Below are positions 4,435-50,595 of a stretch of 64,000 nucleotides of DNA, piece by piece. The DNA comes from Botryllus schlosseri (Eukaryota). The DNA is taken from NCBI GenBank assembly GCA_051294905.1, contig CM119371.1, positions 22,384,001 through 22,448,000 of the forward strand. Direction: 5' to 3'. The position numbers and the translations under genes were made by a program. Below the pieces are notes generated by a model. The model had not been told where the DNA came from, made no database searches, and was given only the letters and a program-made list of their open reading frames with translations. Position 1 is the first letter of the stretch, and each line of letters begins with the position of its first letter.

Positions 4435-4503
4435 TTATGTACGAAGAAGATCGATCTCCAAGCAATGGCTACCTCTCGAATACATCAAACCGCGGTGATC
4501 AAA
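4435..4503 (+). CDS. Candidate upstream or first coding exon of the ZU5 gene (MYEEDRSPSNGYLSNTSNRGDQ)
   Basis: AG acceptor at 4433-4434, ATG at 4437, open frame, strong donor GTGAGT at 4504; ends in phase 1, compatible with the downstream exons. No homology support. Confidence 0.35.
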
Positions 4504-4749
4504 GTGAGTATACGATGATCGATATATATTAATTGCAGAAGATTGGGGATATTTCTGGGTTGAAGCCTCTAATTTTACATTCTAAAACTGTGCATGTAGT
4601 ATAAATTGTTATGATGTCCTTTGTGATAAACTATATGGTTATAATCACACTTGAGCATTTTTGGCATGTACGAAAAATAACAAAATAGCTCATTTTTCAG
4701 ATTTATTTCTAAAGTCGCCGCAAATTAACACTCGAATTAATCTTATAGG

Positions 4750-5589
4750 TACGGCGTTTTTTTACCTGAAAAAGGGAAAATTTTGACCTAAAAAATCAAA
4801 ATTTTGACTTTTTGTGACCTAAACAAACTGAATGTTGACCAAATTTTGACTTAACGTATGCAAATTAGGTGTTTTCCCACATTGTGTCAAAATTGTACCA
4901 CTTATCTACATTTGTGGTTGGAACTGGCTGTCCTAACGAAGTAGTTTGGCCTGAAAAAACGTTTTTGGCATATAAACAGGAAACTTTGTACATAAAAACA
5001 ACACAACATTTTTAACGAAATCTGGCCCTATGAAGAATTCCAGTAGTTGCAAGACGTATTATGGTGGAAATAATTAAAACGTTTTGTAGTACGAGAGATA
5101 CCTTCCTACATTCTTGGGTAGAAAGTGGTTGTCCTTACTAAGAAACTCGCCAAGGACGTTCAACAGCAGCAGTTCTTTGCTCACAACAGTCAAGTTGTGC
5201 GTACACTGCTGGTGACACACCATGTTGCTTCATTCTGACAATGTTGTCTACATCACAATTTTTCATCATGCGCTTCTCAATATAAGAATGATGCAATACC
5301 CAAGAAGTTTTTCTTCAGTTAGGATATTGCGGTACGTTAATGATAATACCATGTCTGCCGATTTGTTTTATTTGACCATTTATGATTTAAAATGAGCAGA
5401 AAATTAGCTGTTTACAATAGTAGGCTTATTAAGTAGGCTGCAAGCCGTAAAATTTGAAATGATACGCTCATCGGCAGTGCAATATCTACGATACTAACGA
5501 AATAAAGACGCCAATTTTTTTTGGACTTTATATACAATTTTGACAACATTTTGACAAATTTTGACATGTCAAAAAAAAAAAACGTCCTA
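4750..5589 (-). mobile_element. Internally deleted hAT element carrying a transposase C-terminal remnant
   Basis: TIRs TACGGCGTTTTT / AAAAACGTCCTA; TSD CTTATAGG/CTTATAAG; GACCTAAA/TTTTGAC subterminal repeats; minus-strand broken translation at about 5090-5290 (SPAVYAQLDCCEQRTAAVER...LSKDNHFLPKNVGRYLSYY) resembles the hAT dimerisation motif TSxxVERxFS. Confidence 0.7.
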
Positions 5590-5893
5590 CTTATAAGCGT
5601 TTCCTGTTGTTTGTTGTTGTTGTTTTTGGTGTTCGTGGTATTTTAACTACCATAATTATTTTCGTCAGGCCGATATTTATTATTATGATTCCTGATTTGT
5701 CTTGGCTTCCGTTCTATACTTTTGAAGAGCTTCTTGGAGGTACATAACTTCAATATACAATTGAATAGTATATTCATATTGAAATAAACCCGAATATTTT
5801 CGGCTGCCACTCGTCAGATGTATCGTCAGCAACTAGTAGAGAATTCAAAAGAACATCGTATATCAACAATCGTTCAATGTACAATATTTAGAT

Positions 5894-7071
5894 CAGTGGT
5901 TCCCAACCTTTTTCGACTCATCGCCCCCTTTTGAAGCTCCACACCGATCATCGCCCCCCAAATATTGGGAACCGAAAAACAGCACTTCGTCACCCCTCCC
6001 CCCCCGAAAAAACGTTGGTATTTGGCCCCATGGAGTGATAAACCAAACCCCAGACCCCCCTCAGCCAGTGGGCTTTTTGTCGGTACATATCAGCTATACC
6101 CTATTTCATGTACTGTTTGGTGGGTGACCGTATTTCGCCTATACGCGCGAAGCGCGACAAATTTATATAATTCATGTTTGAATCGGTCAATATGGTCGAT
6201 GTGGCATGTTGGAAAAGGTAGGACCCCTAAATAATAATTAAACATATTCGGGCGGAATCGTTGTTATATTGACTTCTTTACATGATGCTATTTCGTGACC
6301 TCCTATATCTGTTATGTCAGAAGATATGGAAATGGTCAAATGTACCAAACTAAAAGACGCACATGATTTCATATTGGTATTTCTTTACTGGAAAATAATT
6401 TTTTCCTTGCGGGATGTCATTTGTCCTGTAGGGTTTAGGTCGCCAGGACAGGAACATTTGACGCCAGCAATTGAGGCGCCTATGGACAATTAAAAATATA
6501 TGCATATATATCGAAGTTTTCGGTCAACACAAGGACATTCCTTTTCGGCCAAGGTCTTCTCGCTGCTGATCGTTCTGGCACACTTCTCGGAGTCGCATGT
6601 TACATGGCCTCTAACTTCATATGTCTTAATGCGTCGTGGCGCATTAATGGCCGGCGCCCAAGTCTCACATTTCCATAAATCATGCGTATTTTTGTTGGGT
6701 GACGGGGACCCCAACAGCAAGATACATGAAAATATTAAATCGCGCAGAGCGCGAAAATTTTTTGAAAAAGTCGCGTGAATTTCTATATAATTACTCTATC
6801 ATTCATGTTAATTCACGAAATAATTTTGAGCTTCCTTCGATTTTGGGCCCCCACCCCCAATTGGGGGGTTTGGGGTGCGGTAGTTACGGTCCCGACTCCA
6901 ATGTAGGTGTTTTAACGCACCATCGCCCCCCTATCGCCCCCTTCGTTGTTTTCGCCCCTATCGCCCCCTTCGACCGTTTTCGCCCCCCTATCGCCCCCTT
7001 CGTTATTTTCGCCCCCCTAGACCAACAAATCGCCCCCTGGGGGGCGATATCGCCCACGTTGGGAACCACTG
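5894..7071. mobile_element. Non-autonomous hAT (Charlie-like) element
   Basis: TIRs CAGTGGTTCCCAAC / GTTGGGAACCACTG; perfect TSD ATTTAGAT; ATCGCCCC subterminal array; internal ~6230-6895 is homologous to ~39885-40565. Confidence 0.92.
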
Positions 7072-7091
7072 ATTTAGATGATACACGAACT

Positions 7092-7258
7092 CTTTTTGTT
7101 GACACAGCCTTGGATGGTGTATTTTGATAAAAGTCGATTCCAAGGCACACAAATGAAAGTGTGAGCGCATACTCGAAAAGGGTCGCTCACACTTTCATTT
7201 GTGTGCCTTGGAGTCGACTTTATCAAAATACACCAGCCAAGGCTGTGTTAACAAAAAG
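7092..7258. repeat. Near-perfect hairpin (~75-bp arms, 16-nt loop)
   Basis: 7092-7167 is the reverse complement of 7184-7258 with only a few mismatches and one indel. Confidence 0.9.
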
Positions 7259-7942
7259 GCCCACAGGCCTCGTGTTTGAGACCCCTGTTATAGGGTATAT
7301 AGGCTATGTCAAATGTGCCCGTTCCATAATTTCTTTAAAGACTAGGAAATACTTGTTTTTTTTCTTCATGTTATCGTAGTACCTAACACTGAATTGGCAC
7401 CAAATTCGCGTTATAAAATTGACCTGCTCGTTATTCCCTGTAATAGGACTTGGTGCTTGGAAAATGTCACTATTGTCGGGTCACAACTGCTATCCGGTAT
7501 TCGCGGAATAGAGTCAAGTCAAGTTACTCTCTTTTAGAATTAGCTCAAGTCATGTCAAGTCAAATCAAGTTAAGTCAAATTTTCGGGTTACTTCGCGTGA
7601 TATAAATGAGGAAACCGGAAATCATACCGATTGCTTACGCATTGAAGTTTGCGATGGCTGAAGTACGGATTGAGGTGTTCTTAATCGATCATCGAATATT
7701 AAGCTGATTATACCCGGCACTAGTCATAACAGCTGGCGCCGAAGCGCATGGATTGCTGAACAGTCATTGGTGTCCATCTGTCCAAAGTCCAAACGCAACG
7801 AATCATGTCGGAGAAGTTCCGCAAATAGTCTATTGTCTAGTTATCCCTAAAATATTATTGCAAAGTCATCATCATTATATGAACAAATGAGAATTCTCCT
7901 ATACGAGTGAAATCACGCGATATACCTACCGATCACCGCTAT

Positions 7943-10398
7943 CAGCTATGATGATTGCGCATTGTGGGTGTTAAAAAATTTGTTTTTTCAAATTTCATTG
8001 GCGCACACCAAATTTGACTCAAGTACAGTAGACGGTAGAAGCGCAGATCAGTCAAATTGAAATGTGGGTCATTTCTCAAATACTAGAATTTACTGTGACC
8101 AATTTAGTCACACCGTCATGACCAAAAATCGTGTTCCGGGTACGCTTGAAGATGCGGGGATGTCTTTCTCACGTCTTTTGATCTTGACAAACGCCTATGG
8201 GGGAGTTTAGAGAAATACATCGTCAGTAAAAGAAATAAAAGATATGACACGGATTAGCTGGAAATTTGTCCGCTTCATTGGTATAGCTACGTTAAAACAA
8301 TGGTGAGAAAATTTTCAAATAGAGTACTTTACGCACTGAAATTAACGTCCACGAAAAGGAAATGAACTGACAAGCTAGTAAGATACGGGTAAATATATTT
8401 CTCTAGTGATAATCAATATCTATATATTCTTTGTCGGTAGCCTATGTCTTCATGATACAATTTCATATTATATGATATTATATCATTTGCTCTGCAGCAT
8501 TCCTATTGACCTCTCACGGGCGATTTATAAGACTAATGGGCATCGCGACAGATCTTCATCCTATCAAAAGTTATCGTCCTGTGTCATCCTCCATATTCGG
8601 TTATTACCGTCTAATTGTGTCCATATATCGTGGTAAAACACCAATGATGTTTATTACTCTATGACAAGATGGTTCAGGTGATATTAAGAGACCAGATAAT
8701 GGCAAACGTGCTTTATAAGCTCAGATGGTTACCGTTTGGTTTCTCTGAAGATCGCAAAGTTTCGAGCAGACCAAAAGCTCTAGCATCAACGCTTATATGA
8801 AGTACCAGAAATGCTTTTTCAACTCATGAATACTATTCAGTGACATAGCCCAGTGGTTCTCAAAGTGGGCGCCAGCGCCCCCTGGGGGCGTTCGTGAGCT
8901 TGAGGAGGGCGCTAGCCGTGAATTGGGCGATTAGGGGACGCTGTCTATAACTTCGGGCGGTAGGAGGGCGCTGAGAGCCAATGGGTGCGGTGTAGGTTTA
9001 GCAGGCAACTGCTTCGTAGCGTTGAAATGATTGATAAATAAGACAGCTGAATACGCAGTAAAAATGCAAAATCGATTCAGTCGGGGTCGTCCGTTTACTT
9101 AATCAGTTGAACCGGAAATGTCCACAGTTACTTGACAATGCTAATCCTGCCCATAGATGGACTAATTTATTAGTTGACAGAATCCCTGGAACGCATGGTT
9201 CATTGTGTGCTGTGATAACTACGAAGTATTTGAGCAGTTATTGCTCACTGCAAGGTGTGATGGCTTTTTAAGGACCTCTTCGTCCTTACCCTTCCTGGGG
9301 ACATCTTCCTCGTTACCCTTCCTCGGTCATATTTGATAGAACGTGTTTTCAGTGTCATGACAGAGTTTCTGACTCACAGCAGAAACTGACTTGACAGTAC
9401 GGACGGGGAGACTGGGGATTTCAGAATGAGATTGTTCTTATGAAAACTCAAACTCAATAAGACGAGGGTGACGAGGATAATACACCAGCTTCGTCCGTCT
9501 CATTATTAGCTGCAATGAATGCAGAACTACTTTGGTTTCATGATTTAGGCGAGGTGAGGTGGAAGGGGGGGGGGGGTCGGTGGCGCTGGTAGTTTTTTCG
9601 TTGTCCAGGGGCGGTAGCTCAAGAAAGTTTGGGAACCATCTGACATAGCCCATTCTAAATAGCAATCACCACCATTTTTCACGCCCTGGATCAGTCAATG
9701 TCAAGTAGTAGAGAGTCATTAAAACTAACCCTGAGCTGCTGAGGACTGCAACTGATGTCTCTGTGGATGAGATTGCGGGGATGGCAACTTTTCAATCAGT
9801 ACAACCTTCGAATCAAGGCAGAGAGACATCGGTACGACCTGCGTAACTGGGATAGATTTTGTGAAATCTAAATTGGTCCGACAAACAAACTTCTATATAT
9901 TACTATCACTTAAGAAATATATTTACTCGTATTTTACCATCTTTTCAGCTCATTTCCTTTTCGTGGTCGTTAATTTCAGTGCGCAAAGTACTCTATTTGA
10001 AAATTATTTCACCATCCTTTTAACGTTGCTATTTCAACGAAGTGCACTAATTTCCAGCTAATCCGTTTCATATATTTTCTTTTTCTTTTACTGGCAATGT
10101 CTTCATCCAAACTCCGCCATAGGCCCTTGTCAAGATCAAAACAAGTGGAAAAGACATCCCTGCCTCTTCAGGCATACCTGGAACACAATTTTTGGCCACG
10201 TCGGTGTGACGAAATTGGTCACCGTAAATACTACTATTTGAGAAATGACGGAAATTTCAATTCGACTGACCTCGGCTTTCACTGGTTGGAATTGAGTCAA
10301 ATTCAGTACATCTTTTTTTTAGGTAACCTGACGATTTGACAACCAAGCCGATGAAATTGAAAAAAAAAATTTAACACCCCTATTGCGCATTGTAAGCT
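7943..10398. mobile_element. Old long-inverted-repeat (foldback or Mutator-like) element
   Basis: ~7943-8425 and ~9890-10398 are diverged reverse complements (e.g. CGGATTAGCTGGAAATT / AATTTCCAGCTAATCCG; TCAAATAGAGTACTTT / AAAGTACTCTATTTGA); nested MITE at 8851-9642. Confidence 0.7.
8851..9642. mobile_element. Non-autonomous hAT (Charlie-like) MITE
   Basis: TIRs CAGTGGTTCTCAAA / TTTGGGAACCATCTG; perfect TSD ACATAGCC; inverted relative at 56678-57261. Confidence 0.88.
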
Positions 10399-10805: not shown

Positions 10806-10928
10806 AATCAGTGGTATTGGCTCAAGGCAACAAGGATCATCGGACGATCGAAAATAGTGATATTTATAATATGGCTTCTATCTTCAAAAATCCCGACGCC
10901 TCCTGGTTCGACGCACAAAGTATCCATG
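10806..10928 (+). CDS. Candidate phase 1-1 internal exon (SVVLAQGNKDHRTIENSDIYNMASIFKNPDASWFDAQSIH)
   Basis: TTTCAACAG acceptor, 123 nt open frame, G|GTAAAA donor; same phase as the downstream repeated exons. Confidence 0.45.
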
Positions 10929-11456
10929 GTAAAACACGTACGTATGTAAACATTTCACCGCTATACATATGGTGGTAAAACAGGGGAATGTCAATTTCAT
11001 ATTTCAAATAGATTGATCTAATATGAAGCAATATTTGTATATCGACGATGTAGATTCATCAGTAAGTCTGCAAATGATAAAATACGTTGGTCAACATATG
11101 TTAAGCAAACAAAGTAAAAGTGATGTTTTCCTGGGTTATGACAGACACTGATACCAAATAAAGCATTATATTTTTTCAAATTGGTTCAAGTTTTAGAGAT
11201 GCGGCTTTTTGACTAAAATCTCATATATCAGCCTTATGCTCTGGATAAAAAATCCCATCCGTACAATAAATCTCAGGAATACAATTTATTGCCAAACAAA
11301 GATCTCGCACCAGGTCATGAGAAGTCTAAATTGATTGAATAACTGGACCACATGCGGATTCTTCATAATCAATTATTATATGTCTATGTATGGGCCGTTA
11401 AAAGTAAAAGAAAAATAGGATTTACCCACTAAGCGTAATTGTTTAGGGATAAATGC

Positions 11457-13011: not shown

Positions 13012-13128
13012 CTACTGACACTTTTAAGCTGAGCCCAGAGTTGGGCAATATACATGCGAAAAGTTCAAGAGCAGAAGAACATGGAACAGATACTCCAAAC
13101 GCATCCACTCTCGAAAAGGATGCACCAG
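13012..13128 (+). CDS. Repeated linker exon R1 (TDTFKLSPELGNIHAKSSRAEEHGTDTPNASTLEKDAP)
   Basis: GTGTTTCAG acceptor, CAG|GTGAGT donor, 117 nt, phase 1-1, open; splice sites and frame kept in five paralogous copies. Confidence 0.8.
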
Positions 13129-13276
13129 GTGAGTCCCGTTTTGTTGTGTGATATTTAGGGATGAGCTTAGAGAATGACAGATTTTATTCATATATCATGT
13201 CCTCACATTTGAATCGGGTATGCGTCGAATCGCTACAACAGAAAATTCAAATTTGATGTGATTTTCTTGAGCACCA

Positions 13277-14964: not shown

Positions 14965-16069
14965 CAATGGTTCTCAACAGGGGGTCCGCGGACGGGGTGT
15001 GCGAAGCATTTGCGGGGTCCGCGAAGCCTCTAAATTTACAAAATGTTTGATAACCTCTAATTCGAATTGTTGTTAATTTGAGAAATCAAGAGACAGTTTT
15101 GCTTAATTAGTAGTAAAACTCCAGGACTCACATTAACAGAATGGCCGTCTGGGGTGAAATATCCTACTGTCTATGCAAACTCATTTTAATAGCTAAAGTG
15201 CCAGCCTATATACTAATACAAACAAAGTGCTGTTTAGATGTGTTTTGTTGAGGGTTATGGAAGAATAGAAAGTTGTGGAGTAGTAAGGTCGACAACTTCG
15301 AAACACTTGCGGAAATCCATTTTCTTCTGTAATATAGGCTTCATATAACCACTATTTCATAATAAATTCGAAATGAGCTGTTAGATAAAATGACCAGGCT
15401 GGACATCATGTGTTAATTAAAACTTCTTTTTTCAATATTGGTGCCATATTTGTTGCTATCATACCCAAATGTGTCGTCGGAAGCGTTACGCGCTAATATC
15501 ACATTCACCAGCACCTATCGTCGTGTAAATCGATTTGATGCACCCATTCATATCAAGTCGAAAGCGCGAATTTTCAAGACACAACCATGTATGCAGTTTC
15601 GGGATTCATTTTGAACTATTAATAGTCCACGCAATTTGTACATAAATAGTGTGCTGCTATTTTCAAGAAATGTCATTTTGTTGCTTCTCATCACTAGCCT
15701 ACAGTTAATATTTGCACAAGACAGACGACGACTTCACGATGGTTGAGCTAAATTTGAACTAAAAGCTGAGGGGGTACGCGGGCGGCCGTGACGGTCTAAA
15801 AGTGGTCCGCGAGAGAGAGAGAGAGAGAGAGAATTTTTTATTCATCATCGCAAAATAACAAAACAGGCAACAAAATAGCATAAACTGGACACATACAAAA
15901 AAATGGTTACAGTGTCAATTTCAAAGTAAATGAGATGTGTACGAATACGATTTACAGTTCATAGGATTGGCCAATATGTTTTACGATTGCAAGATGAAGC
16001 TGCAGCGAAGTGATCTGTTGATCATCGAGTCTGCTGCAGCAGCGAAGAATAAAAGGTTAAGAACCACTG
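14965..16069. mobile_element. Non-autonomous hAT (Charlie-like) element with nested retro-insert
   Basis: Ends CAATGGTTCTCAAC / GTTAAGAACCACTG; TSD decayed; right end recurs at about 22497-22567 and 25498-25569; same left end at 51638. Confidence 0.75.
15811..16041 (-). mobile_element. 5'-truncated retroposon 3' end with (CT)n tail
   Basis: Minus strand ends GATGAATAAAAAATT(CT)n, like the LINE tail at 35910-35936; absent from the paralogous empty sites near 22540 and 25543. Confidence 0.7.
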
Positions 16070-16611
16070 CTCTAGGGTTTACCACGCTTTTCGACCTTTG
16101 GATGTGAACATACATTCTTTCCGCTAAGAGTGTATGCCCTGAAAATATACTAGCTTGCGACCGAATGAAATGGTAAAAACTGAACTTAGGCCAAAGCTGC
16201 TTTCTCCTTGAATACGAAAATATATAAGACGAATTAAAATGTGGTCCGGGCATTGTAATCGCCAATATCCCCAGCCAAAGTTAGAATTGCAACGGTATTG
16301 CTCCAATATTTTAACTACGCGTTTGCGGCATGGGTATGCACGAGGTTGCGCGACCAGCGTTTATACAAGGCCCGTGAGTGCTTCAAGTCGTCGTGATTGG
16401 CAGAAACAGGATTGTATAGTTCTATGTATGCATGGGCGGAAGATTTGCAGCAATATAACCGAGGTATAAAACCAATGTTTGCTTAGCTAAATAGGCACGC
16501 TGTACATGTACATTATACAGCGTATTTACGAAAGAGGTGTGGATGTGGACGTTGACCTCAGTCAACGCCTCACTTGGTGTTTCGACTTCCTTGTTGCCAT
16601 ATTACTCGCAG

Positions 16612-16945
16612 CAAGGCATTTTTATAAAATAGGTTGTATCGACACGCTTTGTGTGACTTATGCCTCGTACCCGAGAACGTGGATCACTTCGTCCTCACAT
16701 GCCTAAAATACGATTGGCACCGATCATATTTGACTGGTTTCTTTTTAGGCTTGAAAGTTGAGTTCACTGCAGATAACGTTCTCGTGCGGACAGAACTCCT
16801 ATCGCCTCTCGTTCAGTACATCTTGGCCAGCAATGTGTTGATTTAGGGAATTATATTTTTAGGTTCACGATTTGCGACATGTAAGACCAAATTTTTGTTG
16901 TGGCGCACCAAACCGATAAGTTGATAAGCGCCACAATATCCCATT
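16612..16945 (+). mobile_element. 3' fragment of an I-group-like non-LTR retrotransposon (CCHC C-terminus plus 3' hairpin); copies at about 23095-23428 and 26110-26420
   Basis: HLFKVGCIDTLLCDLCLIPENVDHFVLTCPKY motif (23095 copy) typical of the LINE C-terminal zinc knuckle; GTGGCGC...GCGCCAC stem-loop; absent at paralogous sites near 43110 and 49612. Confidence 0.8.
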
Positions 16946-18299
16946 TTTTTAAACTTTCATTAGATTTTTTGATTTATCAAACTATTTCTTTGTGAATTTT
17001 TTTTCTGGCAAAATACGCTAGTCAACAAATATTAGGCAAACCGTGTAAAACTGATGTTTTCTGGGATTTTGACAAGCACTGATTCCAAATAAAGCATTAT
17101 TTGGAATATCGACCCTAGTTTTTGAGCGGTACCTTTTTGGCTAAAACCTTATATATCGGTCCTTTGATCTAGGTAAAAAAGAGGCCATCCTTGCAAGAAG
17201 CCTCACGAATTCAATTCATTCTTAATGTGTAAACAATGAAGACAATTTACAAGAGTATACTTTTCAAGTCCGACAGAATGCTTCTTTTCCAAAGTAAGAT
17301 CTCGCACCAGGCCATGCAGAATAAACTGATTGAATAACTGAGGACCACATGCGGGTTTTTCATAATCAACTATTATATATCAATGTATGTGCAGTATAGA
17401 ATTTAAAAAAAATTAGGATTTACACATATTAAGCGAATTTTTTTTTTGGTATGAATACTCGGGGTGGTGTGAACTGCAGAAATGTTGCTGTTCGCGTTCG
17501 CAAACGAGCTTTAAAACTCTTACGCATGCCCCAATGTTTGCCGTCATTACAACCTCTTTGGCTGCATTTCCTTTCATTTAAACTTTGTACTACTCTCTGG
17601 ATGGTACTGGAAGCGAGAAAAGAAATTCAGCACTAAACGAGCACACACACTGGCTTTGTAGAAACATTTACTCCCAATATTCAGATTTTTGTCCGTGAAT
17701 ATTTATTGATTCTCTGCTTTGAACTTGGTCCCGATACCGAGAATCGTCAATAGATAATATCAACTATAAAGTGATATATTGAATGCATTGTGTGCTAATA
17801 AAAAATGCATAGCAGGGATCGATCTTGATTTGAAGTGTTTATTGGATCATATAAACTAAATACGCGCGATTGAGGTGTTGGCTACTGTGAAACTTGATTT
17901 GGAGGTAATATCTGCAGCTATAGTATAGGAACCAGTATTTCGCTCTGATCAATACCAAGGTAGCAATAGTCTTGAAAATACGTTGTCTGCTCTAGCCTGC
18001 CCTGGACCTTTAGGGCGTAAGCTTATATTCCCTAAGCATAGCAGGGGCTCGTGGCAATTATTTACAAAGCGACGTAAAATATTGATTTCATGGAATTAAT
18101 AGCACATTTGATTTTTCCTGCTGATGAAGTTGGCAATGCTTAAAATGTCAGCTTTTACTTCAGCATTGCGGCTAAATGTGGCATGAGTCGTCGCTATAGG
18201 TATCATGCATATTATTATATTTCATTGCGTAAATGTAGGCTTGGAATTAGCGATATGAAATTCTGTGACGCCACAGGTTGGTGTTCAGGATCGCGATCG

Positions 18300-19184: not shown

Positions 19185-19301
19185 CTGCTGAAACTGTTAG
19201 GCTGACACCAGACATGGTCAATATACATGCGGAAAGTTCAAAAGTAGAAGAACATGGGACAGTTCCTTCAAACGCATCCACTCTTAAAAAGGATGTACGA
19301 G
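19185..19301 (+). CDS. Repeated linker exon R2 (AETVRLTPDMVNIHAESSKVEEHGTVPSNASTLKKDVR)
   Basis: GTGTTTCAG acceptor, GAG|GTGAGT donor, 117 nt, phase 1-1, open. Confidence 0.8.
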
Positions 19302-21492: not shown

Positions 21493-21603
21493 CTACTGAC
21501 ACTATTAAGCTGATACAAGATATCGACAATATACATGCGAAAAGTTCGTTAGCAGAAGAACATGGAACAGACACTCCGACCGACTCCATTCAGAATGCAC
21601 GAG
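21493..21603 (+). CDS. Repeated linker exon R3 (TDTIKLIQDIDNIHAKSSLAEEHGTDTPTDSIQNAR)
   Basis: GTGTTTCAG acceptor, GAG|GTGAGT donor, 111 nt (in-frame 6-nt shorter than R1), phase 1-1, open. Confidence 0.8.
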
Positions 21604-24507: not shown

Positions 24508-24618
24508 CTACTGACAATATGAAGCTGATACCAGATATCGACAATATACATGCAAAAAGTTCATTACCAGAAGAACATGAAACAGACACTCAAAACGACT
24601 CCATTCAGAATGCACGAG
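24508..24618 (+). CDS. Repeated linker exon R4 (TDNMKLIPDIDNIHAKSSLPEEHETDTQNDSIQNAR)
   Basis: GTGTTTCAG acceptor, variant donor GAG|GTGCGT, 111 nt, phase 1-1, open. Confidence 0.75.
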
Positions 24619-32211: not shown

Positions 32212-32688
32212 AAAATAGAAATTTGCCTGGAGCAGCAATCTCGAAACAACAACCTGGAATTTCATGGTGTTCCCCACTCCGAAAAAGAAAATCTGCCTGA
32301 AACTATCATGAAAATAGCTAACGCCTTGAAAGCTGAGATTACTGCGCCACAGATTGTGCAGTGTTATAGAGTGCGCTTCAGAAATAAGGACAAAACAGGA
32401 CCTGTTATAGCCAAATTCTCTTCAGAGCAACCAAAAAAAGAATTCCTCAAAGTGAAAAAGGCCAAAAGGGATATCAAGGACTTTGGTGTAGAAGGAATGA
32501 AACAACTCTTCCTAAACGAAAATTTAACAAATTACAGAAGAGATGTTTTCTTTGAAGCGCGAGCTGCGAAACAAAAAAAAAGCTTCAAATACCTCTGGAC
32601 TGCAAATGGAAATATCTACATGAAAAAGAATGATGGTGCACCCAGAATCCACATTGAGTCAAAGGATGACCTCGATAAACTCAAATAG
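32212..32688 (+). CDS. LINE ORF1, C-terminal part
   Basis: In-frame LEQQSRNNNLEFHGVP upstream of the tracked Met, and FLNENLT..RRDVFFEAR..FKYLWTANGNIY, motifs typical of CR1/L2-group ORF1; in-frame TAA at 32209. Confidence 0.8.
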   Translation, partial: KIEICLEQQSRNNNLEFHGVPHSEKENLPETIMKIANALKAEITAPQIVQCYRVRFRNKDKTGPVIAKFSSEQPKKEFLKVKKAKRDIKDFGVEGMKQLFLNENLTNYRRDVFFEARAAKQKKSFKYLWTANGNIYMKKNDGAPRIHIESKDDLDKLK

Positions 32689-32735
32689 AAACTGCTATAC
32701 TGCTCTCTCACTGCAAACGCAACCCACACTAAAAA

Positions 32736-35651
32736 ATGGCTCAAAACTTTTTCAACGTGAGCAACTGCAGATCTATCAATTCAACGAATAGTAGTGATAT
32801 CCCATCATCTCAAGGAATTTTACTTGCACACTTAAACACAAGATCCCTCCAAGCTCATCTAGATGAAATTCCCCCCCTGTTTGAAATGTTCAATTGCTCA
32901 CCAACCATCATCGGAATTTCTGAGACCAAGTTGAAAGAACATCCAACGACTAATGTTAACCTGACAGGTTTCAACTTTTTACACTCGCCATCTAAAACGA
33001 ACGCTGGAGGTGTTGGACTATACATCAACGAAGGTCTGAGATTTGACATGATGCCCGACGTAAAATTTGAAACCGAAGGCGTAGAATATATATTTGTCAG
33101 AGTACATGTACAAAAAGCTCTCACAGTGGCAGTCATCTACAAACACCCAGGAACAAAGCAAGAGACTTTTCTTGACGAATTCTCAAATATTCTGGAAACG
33201 CTAACGGCAGCTAACGAACAAATATTTATTATGGGAGACATAAATATTGATTTGCTGAAGACCACCAACTTTAACACAAGGTACCGTGAAATGCTTGATT
33301 CTTATGGAATAGCTCAGATAATTACTGAACCCACAAGAATAACTGATCAATCCAAAACTCTACTAGATCACTTCTACTGCAACACTCATCAATATCACCT
33401 GTCCCCTTTTGTGCTCCAACACAGTATGACTGATCACTATCCCATCATCTGCCACATGAAATTGGCCCTGCCACATTGTGCTAAAGAATTTGAATCTCGA
33501 ACGCCCTTAAACCCACGCGGTATAGAGGAGTATATTGAAATTGTCAGCAATACCTTCAACAACTACAAAATTCCTCCACTCACAACTGACAACTACAACT
33601 GCCATTTTGAAAAATTTATTGAGGAACTGCGGGCAGCCCTCGACACATCTTTCCCAATTAGGAAAGTCAACCGCAATGCAAGGCGCTTGAAATCGAAACC
33701 CTGGATTGGTCATGACATACTAGTTGCGATGAAAACAAGGGATTGGATGCATAAGCACTACTATCTGCAAGGCACCATCGAAGGCAAAAAAGTGTACAAA
33801 AAATATGCAAACCAAGTGACGCATATGAAAGAAAATGCCAAAAAAGCATACTTCCAAAAAAGATTCGAAGAGTGCTCCAAAGATCCCAAGAACACATGGA
33901 AAACCATTGGAGAAATTATCAACCTAACTAAAGGTAATGCTCCCAAGAGTACTGATGACATCGAGCTACTCGAGAATGGCAGCATCATCAAAGACCAGCT
34001 TGCAGTAGCAGAAAAGTTCAATCAGTATTTTTGCAACATTGGTCCGGATCTTGCAGCTTCAATACCAAACTCCTCCGATGACTTTCTCACGTATTTGAGT
34101 CCTGGCCCTCAGAAATCCATTTTTCTTGAGCCGACAAGTGAAGGAGAAGTTGCGATCGTATTATCTGAAATGAAAAGTAACAAAGCAGTAGGACCCGATC
34201 TCATCCCAACTCACTTTCTGAAGCTAGTCTTTAATATTATTGGTGATGTTATATGCATTTTCTTCAATGAGTCGATACGTCTAGGCATTTTCCCAGATGC
34301 ACTGAAAACTGCCAGAGTAATGCCAGTGTTTAAGAAAGGCTGTAAAAAGCTAATTTCTAACTACCGACCAATATCTGTTTTGCCAAATCTTGCCACGGTT
34401 TTTGAGAAACTGATTGACTGCCGACTTAAGAACTTTTTTGAATTGAATGCAGTACTGTCTCCGACCCAGCATGGATTCAGATCCAACCACAACACCAACC
34501 ATGCAATACTATCAATTGTAACGGACTATTACAAAACCATCAAGCAAAAAGAAAGTGGCTGCAGCATTTTTATCGATCTCCGCAAAGCTTTCGACACAGT
34601 TAACCACAGAATCTTAAGATACAAGCTAGAACACTATGGAATCAGGGGTATTGCAGCAACTCTACTTGGAAGCTACCTGGCAAACCGCAAACAATTTGTT
34701 AAACTGGGGACATTAAGAACGACTACCAGAGATATAACTTGTGGAGTGCCACAAGGCTCAGTCCTTGGACCGACTTTTTTCCTCATTTATATTAACGACA
34801 TTGTTAATGCATCTTTATTCCGCACAACGCTATTTGCTGATGATACTCACCTCTTCATAACCTCCAACACTGTCGATGATTTGCATGCATCTGTGAATAG
34901 GGAACTCCCAAAAGTGTCGAGATGGCTGCAAGCAAACAAATTAAGTTTGAATGCAGATAAGACCGAGATGCTCGTTTTAAATAATGCCAGTCATAATTTC
35001 ACTGTGAACATCAATCATAAACAAATCTCAATATGTGACTCAGCAAAATATCTCGGCGTCACCATTGATTATAAATTGTCTTGGAAGCAGCATATTGAAT
35101 GCACAATATCAAAACTAGCTCGGTGTGTGGGAATAATGACCCGTCTCCAATCTTTGGTTTCCAGATCAGTACTACGAACCATCTACTTCTCCCTTTTCCA
35201 CTCGCATCTGCAATATGGAATCGTAGTATGGGGAAATGCATGTACAACATTTTTGTGCAGAATTCGAACCCTGCAAAACCGTGCGATACGGCTGATCTCA
35301 TCTGTACCTTTACGTACCAATTTATCGCCTTACTACCGTAAGCATCGAATTTTGCGAGTTGATGAACTGTATCGCTTCGAAGTATCAAAAGTTGTTCACA
35401 AATATTTTTCCAATAGTCTCCCTCCTGTGTTTGATGACTTTTTCATACCTGCTAAACATGTCCATTCCCATTACACGAGATCTTCGTCTAAAGGAAACGT
35501 CTACTTACCCCAACCCAATAGCAACCTAACTAAGAGATCTATCGACTACTCGGGACCTATCATCTGGAATGCATTACCATCACATATCCGTGAATTGCCT
35601 TATAATAGATTCAAAAAAGCCCTACTTGATCACCTCTTGTCGTTACACTAA
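32736..35651 (+). CDS. LINE ORF2: apurinic-like endonuclease plus reverse transcriptase, 971 aa
   Basis: Endonuclease motifs LNTRSL, GISET, MGDINID, LLDHF, TDHYP; RT motifs NYRPISVL, QHGFR, FIDLRKAFDTV, GVPQGSVLGP, FADD, KYLGVTID; no stops or frameshifts. Confidence 0.97.
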   Translation: MAQNFFNVSNCRSINSTNSSDIPSSQGILLAHLNTRSLQAHLDEIPPLFEMFNCSPTIIGISETKLKEHPTTNVNLTGFNFLHSPSKTNAGGVGLYINEGLRFDMMPDVKFETEGVEYIFVRVHVQKALTVAVIYKHPGTKQETFLDEFSNILETLTAANEQIFIMGDINIDLLKTTNFNTRYREMLDSYGIAQIITEPTRITDQSKTLLDHFYCNTHQYHLSPFVLQHSMTDHYPIICHMKLALPHCAKEFESRTPLNPRGIEEYIEIVSNTFNNYKIPPLTTDNYNCHFEKFIEELRAALDTSFPIRKVNRNARRLKSKPWIGHDILVAMKTRDWMHKHYYLQGTIEGKKVYKKYANQVTHMKENAKKAYFQKRFEECSKDPKNTWKTIGEIINLTKGNAPKSTDDIELLENGSIIKDQLAVAEKFNQYFCNIGPDLAASIPNSSDDFLTYLSPGPQKSIFLEPTSEGEVAIVLSEMKSNKAVGPDLIPTHFLKLVFNIIGDVICIFFNESIRLGIFPDALKTARVMPVFKKGCKKLISNYRPISVLPNLATVFEKLIDCRLKNFFELNAVLSPTQHGFRSNHNTNHAILSIVTDYYKTIKQKESGCSIFIDLRKAFDTVNHRILRYKLEHYGIRGIAATLLGSYLANRKQFVKLGTLRTTTRDITCGVPQGSVLGPTFFLIYINDIVNASLFRTTLFADDTHLFITSNTVDDLHASVNRELPKVSRWLQANKLSLNADKTEMLVLNNASHNFTVNINHKQISICDSAKYLGVTIDYKLSWKQHIECTISKLARCVGIMTRLQSLVSRSVLRTIYFSLFHSHLQYGIVVWGNACTTFLCRIRTLQNRAIRLISSVPLRTNLSPYYRKHRILRVDELYRFEVSKVVHKYFSNSLPPVFDDFFIPAKHVHSHYTRSSSKGNVYLPQPNSNLTKRSIDYSGPIIWNALPSHIRELPYNRFKKALLDHLLSLH

Positions 35652-38233: not shown

Positions 38234-39061
38234 AAATCGAATACCCATTCGAAGAAAAAAGTGTTAACGTCGATCATACCAGCAAAGAAGTGGAAATAGG
38301 CGAATGTAGTGTTTTCTTTCCCGATGGATGTTTCAATAAAATGGAAAAAATCACCATCCGGGCAGAAATCAATCCTTCGATATACCCTTCTGAGTATGAA
38401 GCAATTACACCAACATTGACGATCAACGCACCAAAATTAAGATTGCCCGCAACAGTCAAATTACATACTTGGTGTGTCTCCGGAAGCGACAAGCAGGAAA
38501 TTTACATCATGCGATGTGACGAATCATCCAATCGATGGAGAAAAATTGAATGCAAATATTTGGAATATTCAAGATATATCGAATTCCGCATTCCCCAATT
38601 TTCCGGATATGCAGTATTCCGAAGTTTAAAAGAGAAATTGCTAAGTTTGATTCATCCTCTACCACCACGCTATTGCTTGCAACCATTCTTTTACTACAAA
38701 GGCGACTCCTTCGCGCTGGCGGTAATTCCTGACAACAAGCTAATGGAAACAAACCTTCAAAAAATCATGGAGAAGAACTATGGGCCGGACGTTGAGCTTA
38801 AGAGACCTAGGGTCATTGAAGCTGATAAACATAGCACTATCAAAATGGATATAAAAAGCTACGAAACTGGTATCAACGTTAAGCCCCAGGATAAGACATT
38901 AAGTAAAAAGGTCAAGGACATAACGCGAAGCCCGACACCAATATATGAATTATTGATCATACAAGGTACTGAATCGATATCGAGCGAATGGATACCCATG
39001 ACATTTAGAGTGGTAATAAATGCAAAGCTAATCAACGGGTCATTTCCTTGTCCGAATCCAG
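38234..39061 (+). CDS. ZU5 domain plus UPA-like region, exon copy 1 (276 codons)
   Basis: TTGCAG acceptor, CAG|GTAAGT donor, 828 nt, phase 1-1, open; ZU5-like pattern SVFFPDGCF...AITPTLTI...LPATVKLHTW...IYIM...W...IEFRIPQFSGY. UPA assignment is positional inference. Confidence 0.8.
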
Positions 39062-39112
39062 GTAAGTTTTTTGGAGAATGTCCTCATCTATACACGTGAA
39101 CACCAACTACAA

Positions 39113-44013: not shown

Positions 44014-45688
44014 CAGTGATTCCCAACCGCGGCCCGCAGATAGCCTTCTTGCGGCCCCCGCACAAAATATTAAGAAATCGAGTATTGACCAAAAATAAAA
44101 TTTTACATTTATGAAATGCACGTACTTGGCTTGGAGTCCGAAGTTTTTAATTAGGATTGCAGGATAGTCGTAAGTAGACTACTAACGTTACGTCGCTGCT
44201 GTTTCACTGCAATGTGCCCTAACTTTCCAGTTGAACGAGCAGTCGCTATAGATATAGGTATAGACAGGACCATAACTGCGGCACGACACACCCTCCAATT
44301 GGGGGGGGGGCGAGCTCGAAGGGGGCTCAAAATTATTTCGTGAATAAGTATAAATTATAGAGTATTTTTTGAAAATTTGTGCATCTTTTTACTCTAGGCG
44401 TGATTTCATGCTGCCAAATATCTTGACTTTTGGGTACTCATCCCCCCAAAAAATATCATTATCGAAATGGTCGTATCGGCGTTTGTCATTACCGCGCCAC
44501 GACGCACCAAGACATATTAAGTTTTACGCCATGTAACATGCGACTCCAAGAAGTGTGTCAGAACGATTGGCAGCGAGTAAACCTTGGCCAAAAAGGAGTG
44601 CCCTTATGCTGACCGAAGCTTCGTTATATATACAAAATACTGTCTTGGAAATCTGAGCCACACAAGACACATATCATGCCGCAGGGAAAAATTATATTCC
44701 AGTGAAGAAATACCAATTTGAAATAGTGTGCGCCTCTTAGTTTAGTAGCATACGTTTGGGCTATTCTATATTTTTTGATATAGCAGACAGCAGGTTACGA
44801 ATTAACATCATGTTACGGGGTCATACCAACGGGTTCTGCAGTGTCCAAGACACCTCACTTAGCTCTACCGGTAAATATGATTAAGTGAGCAGCGAGGACA
44901 AGGAATTTATAGCAATATGCAATTCCCAATAATATTGATCGATTTTATCATAAATTATCGAAAATTTCGCGCCTCGCGCTTGCTCACTTAACGGTACCGC
45001 TAATTTTGTGGTAAAAGCGAACAAGGTGGTAGGGGTAGGTTTTTTACCCTATGGGAGCCCGAGACCAAAGTTTTTTGGGGGGAGGGAGGCTCACGAAGTG
45101 CCTTTTTGTTCCTGCCAACGGATATACGCCCGGAGATGTTTAATTATTATTGAGGGGTCCTACCTTTTCAAACACACCTCCCTCGGCTCTACCTGTAAAA
45201 CTGATTACGTGAGCAGAGAGAGGATAAAACTTGATTGCAATATACATGCGATTCCCGATCATGTTGACCGATTCAATTATGAATCACAGAAAATTTTCGC
45301 GCTTCGCGCGTTTAGGCAATAAAAGCTGACTCACTAAACGGCCCCGAAAGCAGCATAATTGGTAGTCCTATAGCTCACGATCGGAGTGTCCGAATAATTT
45401 GAAAGCTACAGTCGTACTGATTCTAAAAATACGAATTGAAATCTCGCCAGGGCAATAAAACTGCTCCAAATAGCCACCAAAGGTCGATTGTTCTGAACTA
45501 TGGGAGCGAAGCAACACAAAGACCATAACAATGGCCAAGGGCTTCGAGCGATTGATCGGAACAATGCCAATTTCCATATTTTGATGACTATTTTGGGTCC
45601 GTTTCATTGCCCTGGTATTCGTGCGGCCCCGACCGTACTCTGGAATTCTAAATTTGGCCCCGACATCGAAAAAGGTTGGGAACCACTG
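44014..45688. mobile_element. Non-autonomous hAT element, inverted relative of 39223-41261
   Basis: TIRs CAGTGATTCCCAACC / GGTTGGGAACCACTG; no TSD; flanks indicate an adjacent deletion. Confidence 0.85.
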
Positions 45689-46208
45689 GTCTTGAGAATA
45701 CATTGTCCGGTCTAGCCTGCCCTAGACCTTTAGGGTGTAAGCTTATGTTTCATAGGCATAGCAGGGGCTCGTGTCAATTATTTACAAAGCGACGTAGAAT
45801 ATTGATTTTATGGAATTGATAAAGCACTGGGTTTTTCCATCTGATTATGTTGGTAATGCTTAAAAAGTCAGCTTTTAGCTCAGTATTGATGCTAAATGTG
45901 GCATTAGTCGTCGCTAGGTATCGCGCATAATATTATATTTTATTACGTAAAAGTAGGGTTGGAATTAGCATTATGGCATTCTGTGACGTCACAGGTTCGT
46001 GTTCAGGATCGCGTCCATATAGAGCCATTCAAGGGCTCGCAGTTCGCACCATTCCTAGTAATTGTGGTAATCTAGGCCCATTGAAGGGTATAAGTAACTT
46101 TTAAACTAGAATCAATCGGGCCGAACTAATGTCGTATTCGTCGTTACAAACACCAGAAAACACAATTAGATGTTCTGACAATTTTCTCATTTCGTTGACC
46201 AGTGATAT

Positions 46209-47460
46209 CCAGGGTTGCCATCGCCTGGGACCAAAAAATAAGGACAGTTAAAAAATTAGATTAGCATGAAAAAGCGTTTTTGTACATACTTTGTATCTAT
46301 ATGAGGCGTGGCATATCACATGCCATACTTTTCGCCAGAAATAATCTACGTCAGCAACTCCTTGTTATTAGAAAGTGCTTCATGGACCTTACGACATCTC
46401 AGGTCTAGGTTCACCTTTACTCAAGGCCGAAACAGCACTTCGTCAGTAAACCAAACTTCTTCACCTCGTTGAGATCGGAGGCGTCAACTAAGATGAAAAA
46501 AGTTCATACAAAATAATTTTTGAGCGTACGTAGCAAGAACTCCAGTAACTTATTTACGATGTTGAAATCGGGGAATATTGCCGATTCTCAGACTTTCATG
46601 TGTATTTCAAGGAGGTTCCATTGCCCTGATTAGATTTTGGTGTATATTTTTTCGAATTAGTGAGTTAGTAGCTTTCAAATGAAATGAACATTATTGAATT
46701 TAAGCACGCGGGTCGTCAGCTATGGGGTTAGCAATTATGTTGCGTTCAGATTGCTGAGCACTAATTTCCTCCGGGCAAGCAAGCACGACGACGGGTGCTG
46801 CGTATCTATCCGTAGGTTAGTTATCTATAGTTAGATACCTTTGAATTCTCTCTCATAATCGTCACGAAAAACGTTTTTACGTCTCTGCTCACTTTAACTA
46901 ATCAGATTTAGCCTTATTAGTAGCTAAAACTATTTGCGCAAGTGCAATATAATTTAGAAAAATTTAACAATGATTGATAGCTTTACTACTTAACCAATGT
47001 GTCGACTGCACTGCTTTTTCTTTACTGCGCAATAAATGCTGGCTTCCCCACACTTGAGCTTATTCTGCTGTAGACCAAACAGCAGAAACCTGGTACTACT
47101 GTTTACTGCTAAAATGACGTCCGCTGCTGTAGCTTGGTACAGACGAAACTGCTAAACCACCACTCACTGCCCTAGATTCGCCACTTAGAAGTCAAATCTT
47201 ATGGTGTATACGTCACGAGAGTTCCTTTCATTTATGATGTCATAAAACCTGGACGTAAAAGCATAATTTTAGAATGTTATGCAACACAGATACCCGAGGA
47301 AAACGATCGAAGTTCTGTATGTGGTGGAAAATAAGACAAAATAAGGACGCAAGTCGAAAATAAGGACATTTCTTAGAAATAAGGACAGTTTAGTTTTCTA
47401 AGACGTGGCCCTTCAAAATAAGGACAAATCTTAGGAATAAGGACGGTATGGCAACCCTGG
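46209..47460. mobile_element. Non-autonomous DNA transposon with CCAGGGTTGCCA TIRs
   Basis: Perfect 12-bp TIR, AATAAGGAC subterminal repeats, ATAT duplication, empty site CCAGTGATATAAC in a paralogous unit. Confidence 0.88.
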
Positions 47461-47894
47461 ATATAACGAAAGTCTATACGCAGAGGTATGTTGCCTGTGC
47501 TGCGAGTAAATACTCCATTGATCGAATTTTTCATACTAGAATTGTTTTTGATATACCTGTAATGTCCAATTTCCTTATGACGTATTTTCAAAACTTTCAA
47601 ATATTCATCGTTTGCAAAATAATTTTCTGTCTGCGCACTGCGATGCTATTCGGGCACGCAAGGTCTATCCATATCTTTATACACGGCTGAGTAGCCGACA
47701 GATTGGACTGATAGGGACTGATATATGTACATATTGAACTTGTAGATATCGTAGGTTTCGGAACGAAAATCAATGATTGATTGTTGGCGTTGAAAGCCCA
47801 TTTTCCTCAGTGCATTTACTGTAAAATGTATGGCCTCTCAGACATTGTTGAATGTCTGGAATTTGTTATGGTGTTGATAATTACGGCATTTCAG

Positions 47895-48005
47895 CTACTG
47901 ACACTGGTAGGCCGATACCAGAGACCGAAAATGTACCTGCGGAACGTTCAGAAGCAGAAGTACATGGAACAGACACTCCAAACGACTCCATTCAGAATGC
48001 ACGAG
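47895..48005 (+). CDS. Repeated linker exon R5 (TDTGRPIPETENVPAERSEAEVHGTDTPNDSIQNAR)
   Basis: ATTTCAG acceptor, GAG|GTGAGT donor, 111 nt, phase 1-1, open. Confidence 0.8.
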
Positions 48006-49759
48006 GTGAGTCTCATTGGGTTGTGTAATATTTAGGGATGAGCAAAGAGGATGACGGATTTATTCATATATCATGTCCTCGCATTTTAATCGGGTATGTG
48101 TCGAATCGATACAACAGAAAATTCAAATTTGACGTGATTTCTTTAAGCACCAGTCTCTCATGGATGTGTCGACTACTATGGTCATTTACACCAGAACCAA
48201 GAGTTTCTTATATTCAATTCCGTATCTGCCGACTTCTAGCATGACCCACCTCTAGCTAGGCTTTTCGTAAGACACCACATACACGGATTAGTTGTCGAGA
48301 AGGAACATAGACAAACCTCCAACACTTAGGTTGGAATTCTGGAGTCGACCTGTGTCGGACTCGAACCCCCAACCCATTGGTGTTGTAGCTGTTGATTATA
48401 CCACTTCGCTATCTCGTCACTTAAGCAACAGTTGTAAGCTTGTCAGCGTCTAAATCACTATGAATTTCGTCTTGAATAACCCCGTTCTCGGCCAATAAAA
48501 ATAGTATTGTGTTGTGGAAATGGACGATGTTATCTATACAGGTGGTTTAGAACCTGCGACCCGCCTGCCCGTGAAGACGCATTATAGAATAAATTACAAT
48601 TGTGCATGGACAAAGAAAATTACCAGGATTCTAACCAAGTCAAGGCTCCGACTCACAAATGAATTCTACTTTTATAGTTCACACTCGAGTCAAGCTATTT
48701 TCACTGCACCACAAATTTAAGTCCGAGTCTAAGCCAAGTCAGGGTTTACAGACTCGAAACTGAAATCAAGTCATTGTGTTCACCGTTCAATCCTGTTGAA
48801 TCCACTTAATTCCACTTTACACGAGTGATATGGAAAGGCTCGCAGTTCTCATATAGTAATTTTCTCCGTCTTTCGGCTTACGGCTTTATTTTCCAAGTAT
48901 TAGGACTGATAGACGAAATTGTAACAATGTGGTAACTTTACCATTCTTCGCCGTTACAATGTAATGTCTGTCCTGGCCGCCTTCTCGAGTCATATGACTT
49001 TGTTCGAGTCATTTTACTCATTTGAAAAAATGACTCGAATCAAGTCAAATAACCATAAAATAGCGACTCGAGTCCAATCATAACAACCCTGCTATTTGCT
49101 CATTTGAATCATTGATGCATCGAATTTGCTCACGCCAGACAGATCGCATCGAAACTGCAATATCAAAGAAAAAATACCATAAAACCTATATATGCCTTTC
49201 TTTGGTAATGTGATGAAATATTTCATATAATTATCAGTCTTTTAACAGATATCTCCGTCCATCCCCTATATCCCCCGCGAAAGTGAGAATTGCTTCGGTA
49301 TTTCCCCAGTATTGCTTCTAATCATGCGTATATGCGGCATGCGCAAGGACGAGTTTGCGCGACCAGCGTTTATTCATGACCTGTGATTGCTTCACGTCGT
49401 CATGATTGGTCGAAGCAAATATATATAGTTATATATATGCATGCACGGAAGATTTGGTGCAATGTAACCGAGATAACAATATTTGTCATGCAGAGTAGGC
49501 ACGCTGTACATTGAACAGCGTTTTTACAAAAGAGGTGTGGTTGTGGACGTGGACGTCAATCAACGCTACTCGGTGTTTCGTTTCGACTTCCTTGTACCCA
49601 TATTATACGCAACAGTGTTTGTGATACGTATGTTGCGTGAGAAATCGTCTGCCACTCAAATTATATAAAATTTTATTTGTAGCAGTGATAGTCTTATAAT
49701 ATCAGTGACTGATATATTCTTATAGAATAACTTTTAAATGGAAATCTAATATGTTGCAG

Positions 49760-50595
49760 AAAGCGAATACCCATTCGAAGAAAAAACTGTTTATGTCGAG
49801 AATACCAAAATAGAAGTGGAAATTGGCCAATGTAGTGTGTCCTTTTCCGATTATAGTTTCAATAAAAGGGAAAAAATCACCATTCGGGCAGAAGTCAATC
49901 CTGAGATTCACGAGATATACCCTTCTGATATTGAAGCAATTACACCAACATTGACAATCGACGCACCAAAATCAAGATCACCTGCAACAGTCAAACTTCC
50001 TACTTGGTGTGTCCCCGGAAGTGGCAAGCACAAAATTTACATCATGCAATGTGACCAATCATCCGACCGATGGAAAAAAATTGAAAGCAAATATTTGGAA
50101 TATTCAGGATATATTGAATTCCGCACTTCGAAATTTTCCAAATTTGGAGCATTTCAACGTGTACGTGATAAATTGCGAAGTTCGATTCATTCTCCACTGC
50201 GCTATCGGTTGCAACCAGTCTTTTACTACAAAGGCAACCGCTTTGCGCTGGCGGTAATTCGTGACAACGAGCTCATGGACAGACTACTCAAAAAGATTAT
50301 GAAGAAAGACCTTGGGGGGGGGAAGTGGGATGCTTCAAACCTGAAGCCATGAAAGTTGCTAAACATAGCTTTATCCAAATGGATATAAAAAGCAACGAAA
50401 CTGGTCTCAGCTTCGAGCCCCGGGATATAAAATTATGTGACACGGTCGAGGAAATAACGAGGCGGTCGAGGCCAATATATAAAACATTGACCCTACAAGT
50501 TACTGAATCCATACCGAAGGAAAAGATTACAATAACATATACAGTGGAAATAATGGAAAATCTACTCAACGGGTCATTTAAATGTCCGAATCAAG
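49760..50595 (+). CDS. ZU5 plus UPA-like exon copy 2, frameshifted at a G9 run (real lesion or assembly error)
   Basis: Paralogue of 38234-39061 with intact TTGCAG and AAG|GTAAGT sites; 836 nt; ORFs 49816-50352 and 50325-50660 join across G 50314-50322. Confidence 0.75.

Follow-up and report, generated by a model that had tools for sequence, protein, structure and literature searches.

The locus described here lies in a 64,000-nucleotide stretch of the Botryllus schlosseri genome (the window; C1:22384001-22448000 of 495 Mb) and adds a new member, in part decayed, to a known kind of module, ZU5-UPA with a Phe-Ser dyad of the PIDD/FIIND type, within a family that Pfam does not see. It is probably a young, tandemly duplicated member of a family that has expanded in tunicates and is built on a one-exon module with phase-1 borders at both ends. 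The locus shows birth and death of its parts side by side, with one module copy intact (exon A), one frameshifted (exon B) and one truncated, upstream of the window. The NLRP1 and CARD8 inflammasomes, like PIDD, are switched by self-cleavage of ZU5-UPA, and a preliminary description of this DNA had drawn exons A and B, together with small hydrophilic exons termed R1 to R5, as one spliced gene for an undescribed innate-immune sensor. A single spliced gene and a sensor function both remain unproven, and are weakened by the RNA result, the frameshift in exon B, the lack of constraint on the R exons and an effector search that found none.

Identification of the module comes from its predicted structure. 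The exon A protein (P0001) was modelled with AlphaFold2 on an alignment of 43 rows, consisting of P0001, 28 genomic paralogue exons and 14 short database matches, with exon B, the truncated upstream copy and long multidomain matches left out. The model reached a predicted local distance difference test (pLDDT) score of 93.6 and a predicted template modelling (pTM) score of 0.89; folded without an alignment, the same protein gave an unusable pLDDT of 30.8. In Foldseek the best match was the cytoplasmic domain of UNC5B (3g5b, E 4e-9, template modelling score 0.72), with ankyrin ZU5 structures and CARD8 next in rank, and the nearest Atlas clusters belong to ZU5, UPA or FIIND families. VIA-align superposed the model on 3g5b with Z 19.0 (257 residues aligned, root-mean-square deviation 3.0), on the ankyrin-B ZU5-ZU5-UPA-DD structure 4d8o with Z 17.8 (250 aligned) and on CARD8 in its DPP9 complex (7jn7_B) with Z 15.6 (238 aligned, model residues 5-275 against CARD8 177-445). 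ZU5-only chains gave Z 11.5-11.8 over model residues 5-133. For the rat NLRP1 FIIND chain 7crv_D the score was Z 10.1 over model residues 123-273, a range that begins at the Ser of the dyad, and for 7crw_B it was Z 9.5. Given the confidence of the model and these structural matches, the ZU5-UPA assignment that the preliminary description had made for the 276-codon exon is well supported, and exon A is predicted to form a ZU5-UPA supramodule. Support from sequence is only transitive: of 27 scanned distant homologues, 2 (P0008 and P0009) pass the Pfam ZU5 (PF00791) cut-off at the homologous position.

At the ZU5/UPA junction exon A has QFS at residues 121-123, which the model places after the final ZU5 strand (114-119) and before the strand at 124-130, and exon B has KFS at the same place. 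Across the 43 rows the motif columns hold His in 23, Phe in 34 and Ser in 28, with Cys in a further 7. With Styela proteins added, 29 of 38 module rows, counting the reference row, show F-[SC], and in two tandem-module proteins the first module is without it. In the cited part of D'Osualdo et al. (2011, PMC3210808), CARD8 and NLRP1 are described as cleaving at SF/S and PIDD at HF/S, with Ser as the nucleophile, a buried Phe that is required, and a preceding residue of little importance. The same part of that paper reports that the Nup98 changes H862Q/A affect cleavage only slightly and that CARD8 has Ser at this position. As Phe and Ser are the residues required in CARD8 and NLRP1, exon A appears to hold what is needed for self-cleavage.

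The module belongs to a large family. P0001 has at least 36 related exons in its own genome, nearly all of them uninterrupted frames of 220-460 codons with 28-47% identity, and a HMMER scan of 1.84 billion representatives returned 32 relatives, with 1.6e-41 for the top match. The named ones among them are uncharacterised Styela clava proteins (XP_039260780.1, XP_077973547.1, XP_077965983.1, XP_077972327.1 and others) that share a 270-residue module with exon A at 27-38% identity (phmmer E 1e-16 to 1e-25). XP_039260780.1, of 630 residues, combines two modules, and no effector domain is recognised in it. A domain scan of 27 of the matches found NACHT in 5, a caspase domain in 1 and a kinase with Ribonuc_2-5A in 1. 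NACHT is followed by one module in P0020, P0023, P0025 and P0026 and by two in P0009. In the Styela clava proteins P0022 and P0035 a module with an EFS dyad leads directly into a caspase domain, and in P0016, also from Styela clava, into a protein kinase and Ribonuc_2-5A; such fusions would place an effector straight behind a FIIND-like UPA. Without a recognised effector, P0008 combines a ZU5 with a full module, and P0003 has two full modules and a C-terminal hydrophobic stretch. The Botryllus genome itself has four paralogue exons that follow NACHT exons on the same strand at a distance of 9-33 kb (C2:34.586-34.596 Mb, C2:35.006-35.037 Mb, C5:1.398-1.418 Mb and C16:20.351-20.384 Mb), a relation of proximity only; fewer than one such pair would be expected by chance among 36 loci, by our estimate from 224 NACHT candidates in 495 Mb.

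These relatives bear on two parts of the preliminary description. To call the family undescribed overstated the case, since relatives are annotated, albeit uncharacterised, in Styela clava and NACHT+ZU5 combinations are reported for cnidarians in the consulted part of PMC8260672; likewise, the relevant section of PMC8195603 deals with ZU5/FIIND autopeptidase modules of immune-type proteins in invertebrates. A limited literature search found nothing on this family under ZU5 in ascidians or tunicates and nothing on tunicate NACHT-ZU5 genes, and no near-identical annotated or assembled protein of exon A was found in the protein collection searched. An immune-type setting fits the family, through its members with NACHT, caspase or kinase-RNase domains.

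The exons of the locus are listed in Table 1. Phase-1 borders at the positions first proposed were recovered for R1 to R5, exon A, E1 and the 10806 exon, but not for exon B, which is frameshifted and has a length not divisible by 3. R1 to R5 share a tttcag acceptor and a gtgagt donor (gtgcgt in R4), have lengths divisible by 3, and are all open in phase 1, the sole frame for which this holds. Exon A has a ttgcag acceptor and a gtaagt donor. Aligned to exon A, exon B shows indels of +9, -3 and +2, the last of these in a run of nine G. Read from its acceptor, exon B soon after this run meets a TGA, and its 3' part alone is in phase with the donor; a G run longer or shorter by one base would restore an intact frame. 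The 10806 exon is single-copy, its one genome match being itself, and is the weakest part of the gene model.

Table 1. Coding, repeat and neighbouring features of the locus (positions in the window; negative positions lie upstream of its start, and positions with a plus sign and kb lie beyond it)
Feature	Position	Strand	Description
E1, candidate first coding exon	4435..4503	+	ATG at 4437, 22 codons, phase-1 donor AAA/gtgagt
10806, candidate exon	10806..10934	+	129 nt, phase 1-1, open in phase 1
R1, candidate exon	13012..13128	+	117 nt, hydrophilic, phase 1-1
R2, candidate exon	19185..19301	+	117 nt
R3, candidate exon	21493..21603	+	111 nt
R4, candidate exon	24508..24618	+	111 nt, weaker donor gtgcgt at 24619
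Exon A, intact predicted ZU5-UPA module	38234..39061	+	828 nt, 276 codons, phase 1-1
R5, candidate exon	47895..48005	+	111 nt, assigned to the partial duplicate R5+B
Exon B, second predicted ZU5-UPA module	49760..50595	+	836 nt, frameshift at G9 run 50314-50322, stop 50350-50352
Y, retrotransposon-tail fragment	16042..18294	+	duplicated along with R units; copies at 22540-24278 and 25543-27798
Non-LTR retrotransposon, apparently intact	32212..35651	+	inside the 13.6-kb R4-to-A intron, on the gene's strand
Upstream copy, E1 part	-32572..-27528		matches 1934..5748 (includes E1)
Upstream copy, R part	-27532..-25649		matches R1, 91% identity
Upstream copy, Y part	-20563..-19679		matches the retrotransposon fragment
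Upstream copy, module part	-19317..-18815		matches the UPA half only, 71-74%; ZU5 half missing
Sulfotransfer_2 gene 1	+81.4 kb (L043:7402-8088)	-	one of three in tandem, E 2e-40 to 4e-39
Sulfotransfer_2 gene 2	+92.7 kb (L044:8691-9410)	-	as above
Sulfotransfer_2 gene 3	+155.7 kb (L051:1687-2445)	-	as above

The arrangement of the repeats suggests how the locus came about. Self-comparison places R1 to R5 in units of 3-6 kb with 75-91% identity between units, and the R unit is confined to the locus, where it has six copies, the sixth at -27049..-26802. Comparison with 100 kb on each side of the window revealed that the entire unit occurs once more upstream, as an older copy with a truncated third module about 19 kb before the window. 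In this copy the duplicate of E1 (-28940..-28760) is 96.7% identical, with 5 exon differences (2 synonymous and 3 non-synonymous), so that 5 of 69 exon bases differ against 1 of 112 flanking bases. The upstream copy has no counterpart of window positions 5748-12479, a stretch that includes the 10806 exon. Based on this structure, the ancestral unit would have been E1, one R and one ZU5-UPA exon, and R5+B would accordingly be a partial duplicate. The R unit appears to have multiplied to four copies before exon A, and the partial duplicate R5+B to have been placed behind it.

The Y fragment travelled with the R units, and its copies share 86-88% identity. It is called a transposon because of its copy number: its open reading frame (ORF) has 1714 first-look candidates genome-wide, and among the 150 of these that were scored, several matches end open frames of 1247-1305 residues. 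The ORF has no Pfam match and no similarity to the ORF2 of the long interspersed nuclear element (LINE) in the window. The latter, the non-LTR (long terminal repeat) retrotransposon of Table 1, has an ORF2 of 972 residues with RVT_1 (9.6e-34) and Exo_endo_phos and an ORF1 of 158 residues with Baculo_FP_2nd.

Exons A and B send mixed signals on selection since the module was duplicated: dN/dS between them is about 1, yet other features suggest constraint. The two differ by 169 substitutions over 825 aligned bases, none of which has produced a stop in either, whereas simulated random substitution gave 6.6 stops on average and zero stops in a fraction of only 0.0009 of 20,000 trials. Two of their three indels are multiples of 3. 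Amino-acid differences fall on 23 of the 90 most conserved family columns versus 83 of the 180 others (Fisher P = 0.0014), and in exon A the canonical splice sites, the F-S dyad and each of the seven residues that are nearly invariant in the family are retained. We read this as a fold held under constraint and a surface changing fast for most of the time since duplication, a pattern in the sequences that does not imply present function. A constrained fold with fast surface change is common in immune-type families. Openness beyond chance is found for A and B and is not found for the R exons, for which the probability of staying open by chance is P = 0.11 (not significant).

A number of results weigh against the reading of the locus as a young member of this family. 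P0001 matches 0 Pfam families at E up to 1, be it ZU5, UPA or FIIND, and neither P0001 (phmmer) nor the family profile matches any PDB sequence at E up to 10. Exon A and both parts of exon B give only a sub-threshold DUF match in Pfam, and ZU5 at E up to 0.1 is matched by 0 of the 43 alignment members. The His of the PIDD motif is replaced by Gln in exon A and by Lys in exon B, and cleavage itself is a prediction from sequence and model. Further, the intron ahead of exon A holds a retrotransposon that appears intact.

Transcription is a further such point. Four bulk RNA-seq runs with the same species label were mapped to positions 38001-58000, which cover A, R5 and B, with 7-13 million reads or about 6-13% of each run sampled. 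Exon B had a depth of 0 in both covering bins in all four runs, the bins of exon A had at most 0.1-0.55, and no GT..AG joints were found in this interval in any run. Of the reads that mapped, 563 of 563, 225 of 227, 401 of 406 and 713 of 713 fit only partly, and these come from repeat copies elsewhere. A search of a sequencing-run index with exon A listed no RNA run as containing it. With depth at or near zero and no joints, nothing shows the gene to be transcribed or spliced as drawn, and the spliced reads on which the preliminary description had made its model depend are absent for A-R5-B at the sampled depth.

The search for an effector was equally negative. None of 116 genome-wide Death-domain matches lies in or near the window, nor does any NACHT among the 94 scored of 224 candidates, and tblastn with multidomain and NACHT-bearing relatives over 100 kb on each side recovered only A, B and the upstream fragment. 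Pfam found no signalling domain, Death included, in 131 flank ORFs of at least 100 residues or in 86 plus-strand ORFs of 55-99 residues after A and B, and no CARD-like ORF downstream, although small or split exons could escape such a scan. The earlier observation that the window holds no death, CARD or NACHT exon thus extends, by domain scans and tblastn, to 100 kb on each side, where no Death, CARD, NACHT, caspase or other effector was found. The nearest recognisable downstream neighbours are the Sulfotransfer_2 genes, on the opposite strand from +81 kb onwards. In a search for a conserved downstream exon, the flanks of A and B proved to share only inverted dispersed repeats with the 9.7 kb after the closest paralogue. 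Genome-wide, the immune-type repertoires are large; many of the Death-domain matches occur as inverted pairs about 10 kb apart, and of the NACHT candidates 94 were scored.

One alternative, close to the preliminary description, is a single expressed gene E1-(10806)-R1-R4-A-R5-B, in which a variable, disordered linker array precedes two ZU5-UPA modules and the product works as a protease-tripwire sensor like NLRP1 or CARD8. As every exon is phase 1-1, any combination of them preserves the frame, and a conceptual product spliced as E1-10806-R1-R4-A-R5 is indeed open over 530 codons, its 218 N-terminal residues being hydrophilic and acidic (grand average of hydropathy, GRAVY, -0.95; isoelectric point 4.95). 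Tandem modules occur in single annotated Styela proteins (two full modules in P0003 and P0009, ZU5 and a full module in P0008), R5+B has no E1-like exon of its own, and exon B would be intact if its G9 run were an assembly error. Activation of CARD8 reportedly requires a disordered region, which counts for such a sensor. Against this stand the silence of A, R5 and B in the four runs and the frame itself, which, once extended through exon B as assembled, ends at residue 728 of 809. The R exons, moreover, behave as unconstrained sequence: their pairwise identity of 0.81 compares with 0.73 in the upstream and 0.85 in the downstream intron (400 nt each side), and their pairwise dN/dS (ratio of non-synonymous to synonymous change) scatters from 0.6 to 4.0 on very few sites. 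The upstream copy, with one R and one module, likewise speaks for a smaller unit, and no effector was found behind the last UPA. A single transcript from R1 to B is, in consequence, improbable in our view, and the protease tripwire remains a conjecture.

Alternatively, the whole locus could be dead, with A, B and the upstream copy as unexpressed pseudogene exons that segmental duplication left behind and the R exons as duplicated intergenic sequence that is open by chance. The absence of RNA in the four runs would fit this, as would R exons no more alike than their flanks, the frameshift in B, the truncation upstream and the intronic retrotransposon. So would the rates of change: dN/dS between A and B is 0.80 before the frameshift and 1.27 after it, and with changes polarised by the paralogue L003 the lineage of A has 14 synonymous and 46 non-synonymous changes and that of B 10 and 52, both near neutrality, as is also expected from decay. 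The lack of stops over 169 substitutions and the sparing of conserved columns nevertheless argue for constraint during much of the time since duplication, and exon A has its splice sites, invariant residues and dyad in place. The RNA sampling was also shallow and from unspecified tissues, and the interval mapped has no gene to serve as a positive control. A locus dead throughout is therefore considered unlikely, if far from negligible.

If the locus is, as preferred here, a duplicated member of the tunicate family, the ancestral gene would have encoded an acidic, disordered N-terminal region ahead of a module with self-cleavage between Phe and Ser, as in PIDD, NLRP1 and CARD8, and the two fragments would remain together after the cut until loss of the N-terminal one. 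In the relatives the freed UPA would carry a caspase or a kinase-RNase, or the module would follow NACHT. Since no effector was found at the locus, its own product would be at most an adaptor, decoy or regulator that uses UPA to pair with paralogues bearing an effector. R5+B and the upstream copy would be decaying duplicates, and the gene of exon A may be expressed at low or inducible levels or may have been silenced recently.

Perhaps, the family as a whole can be seen in a wider frame, although this proposal is a long shot. Tunicates would possess a FIIND-like self-cleaving module, invisible to Pfam, that is directly fused to caspase, kinase-RNase or NACHT domains in single-chain sensors released by removal of an N-terminal fragment. 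The locus would be an effector-less member of this system, whose rapidly diverging acidic repeat array and module surface serve as bait or as a decoy that pairs via UPA with effector-bearing paralogues. 

Were a non-vertebrate chordate shown to have dozens of ZU5-UPA modules of this kind, the activation logic of NLRP1, CARD8 and PIDD would have originated before vertebrates. The modules are too diverged for Pfam and keep the Phe-Ser dyad, and in relatives they are combined with NACHT, caspase or RNase-L-like domains. Genes of this type can be built up and broken again through symmetric phase-1 exons and segmental duplication, and the locus is an example of it. The biological weight of this copy itself is modest, as it is effector-less, partly broken and not seen in the RNA sampled.

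Several further features of the stretch were noted. Two genes for tRNA-His (GTG) were called by ARAGORN on the plus strand at 60214-60287 and 63251-63323. The first lies in a block (about 59.4-61.6 kb) that has a duplicate at -37.4..-35.1 kb with 80-85% identity, and the tandem unit therefore seems to include a tRNA-bearing tail block. Some 160 nt past the donors of A and B (39100-39221 and 50640-50755) are 84% identical and have tRNA-like box A/box B strings by eye, with no tRNA called there by ARAGORN; they may derive from a tRNA-derived short interspersed nuclear element (SINE) in place before the duplication. An inverted repeat pair at 8011-8437 and 9878-10303, of 430 nt with 82% identity and enclosing about 1.4 kb, could represent an insertion similar to a DNA transposon, within the part missing from the upstream copy. 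Between the sixth R copy (R0) and the truncated upstream module exon lies a tandem satellite array (-23055..-20805) with many overlapping self-matches of 82-97%. The number of AATAAA signals is at chance level, with 121 against 107 expected. Phase-1 AG acceptors were counted upstream of 28 paralogue exons, and the count was not used, as chance alone would place an in-phase AG within 45 nt in over half of cases.

Among known systems, UNC5B (3g5b) and ankyrin-B (4d8o) show the same two-domain fold across the whole of exon A, but at only 10-13% sequence identity, and a death domain follows there whereas none was found after exon A; the Pfam models for the ZU5 and UPA of these proteins do not match exon A. 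With the FIIND of CARD8 and NLRP1, exon A shares the ZU5-UPA fold and the Phe-Ser dyad at the junction, and the conceptual product likewise has a disordered N-terminus. The motif there is SFS, in contrast to QFS in exon A and HFS in the family consensus, and a CARD follows UPA, whereas this locus has no CARD, no Pfam FIIND match and no NACHT that could be found. PIDD1 cleaves itself at HF/S after each ZU5, and the family consensus HFS is identical to the PIDD motif as given in the cited part of PMC3210808. Tandem modules are also found in relatives of exon A, while exon A and exon B themselves have Gln and Lys instead of His, and neither leucine-rich repeats nor a death domain as in PIDD1. The Styela clava relatives have the same module; most of them carry NACHT, caspase or kinase and Ribonuc_2-5A domains, in contrast to the locus described here, where none was found.

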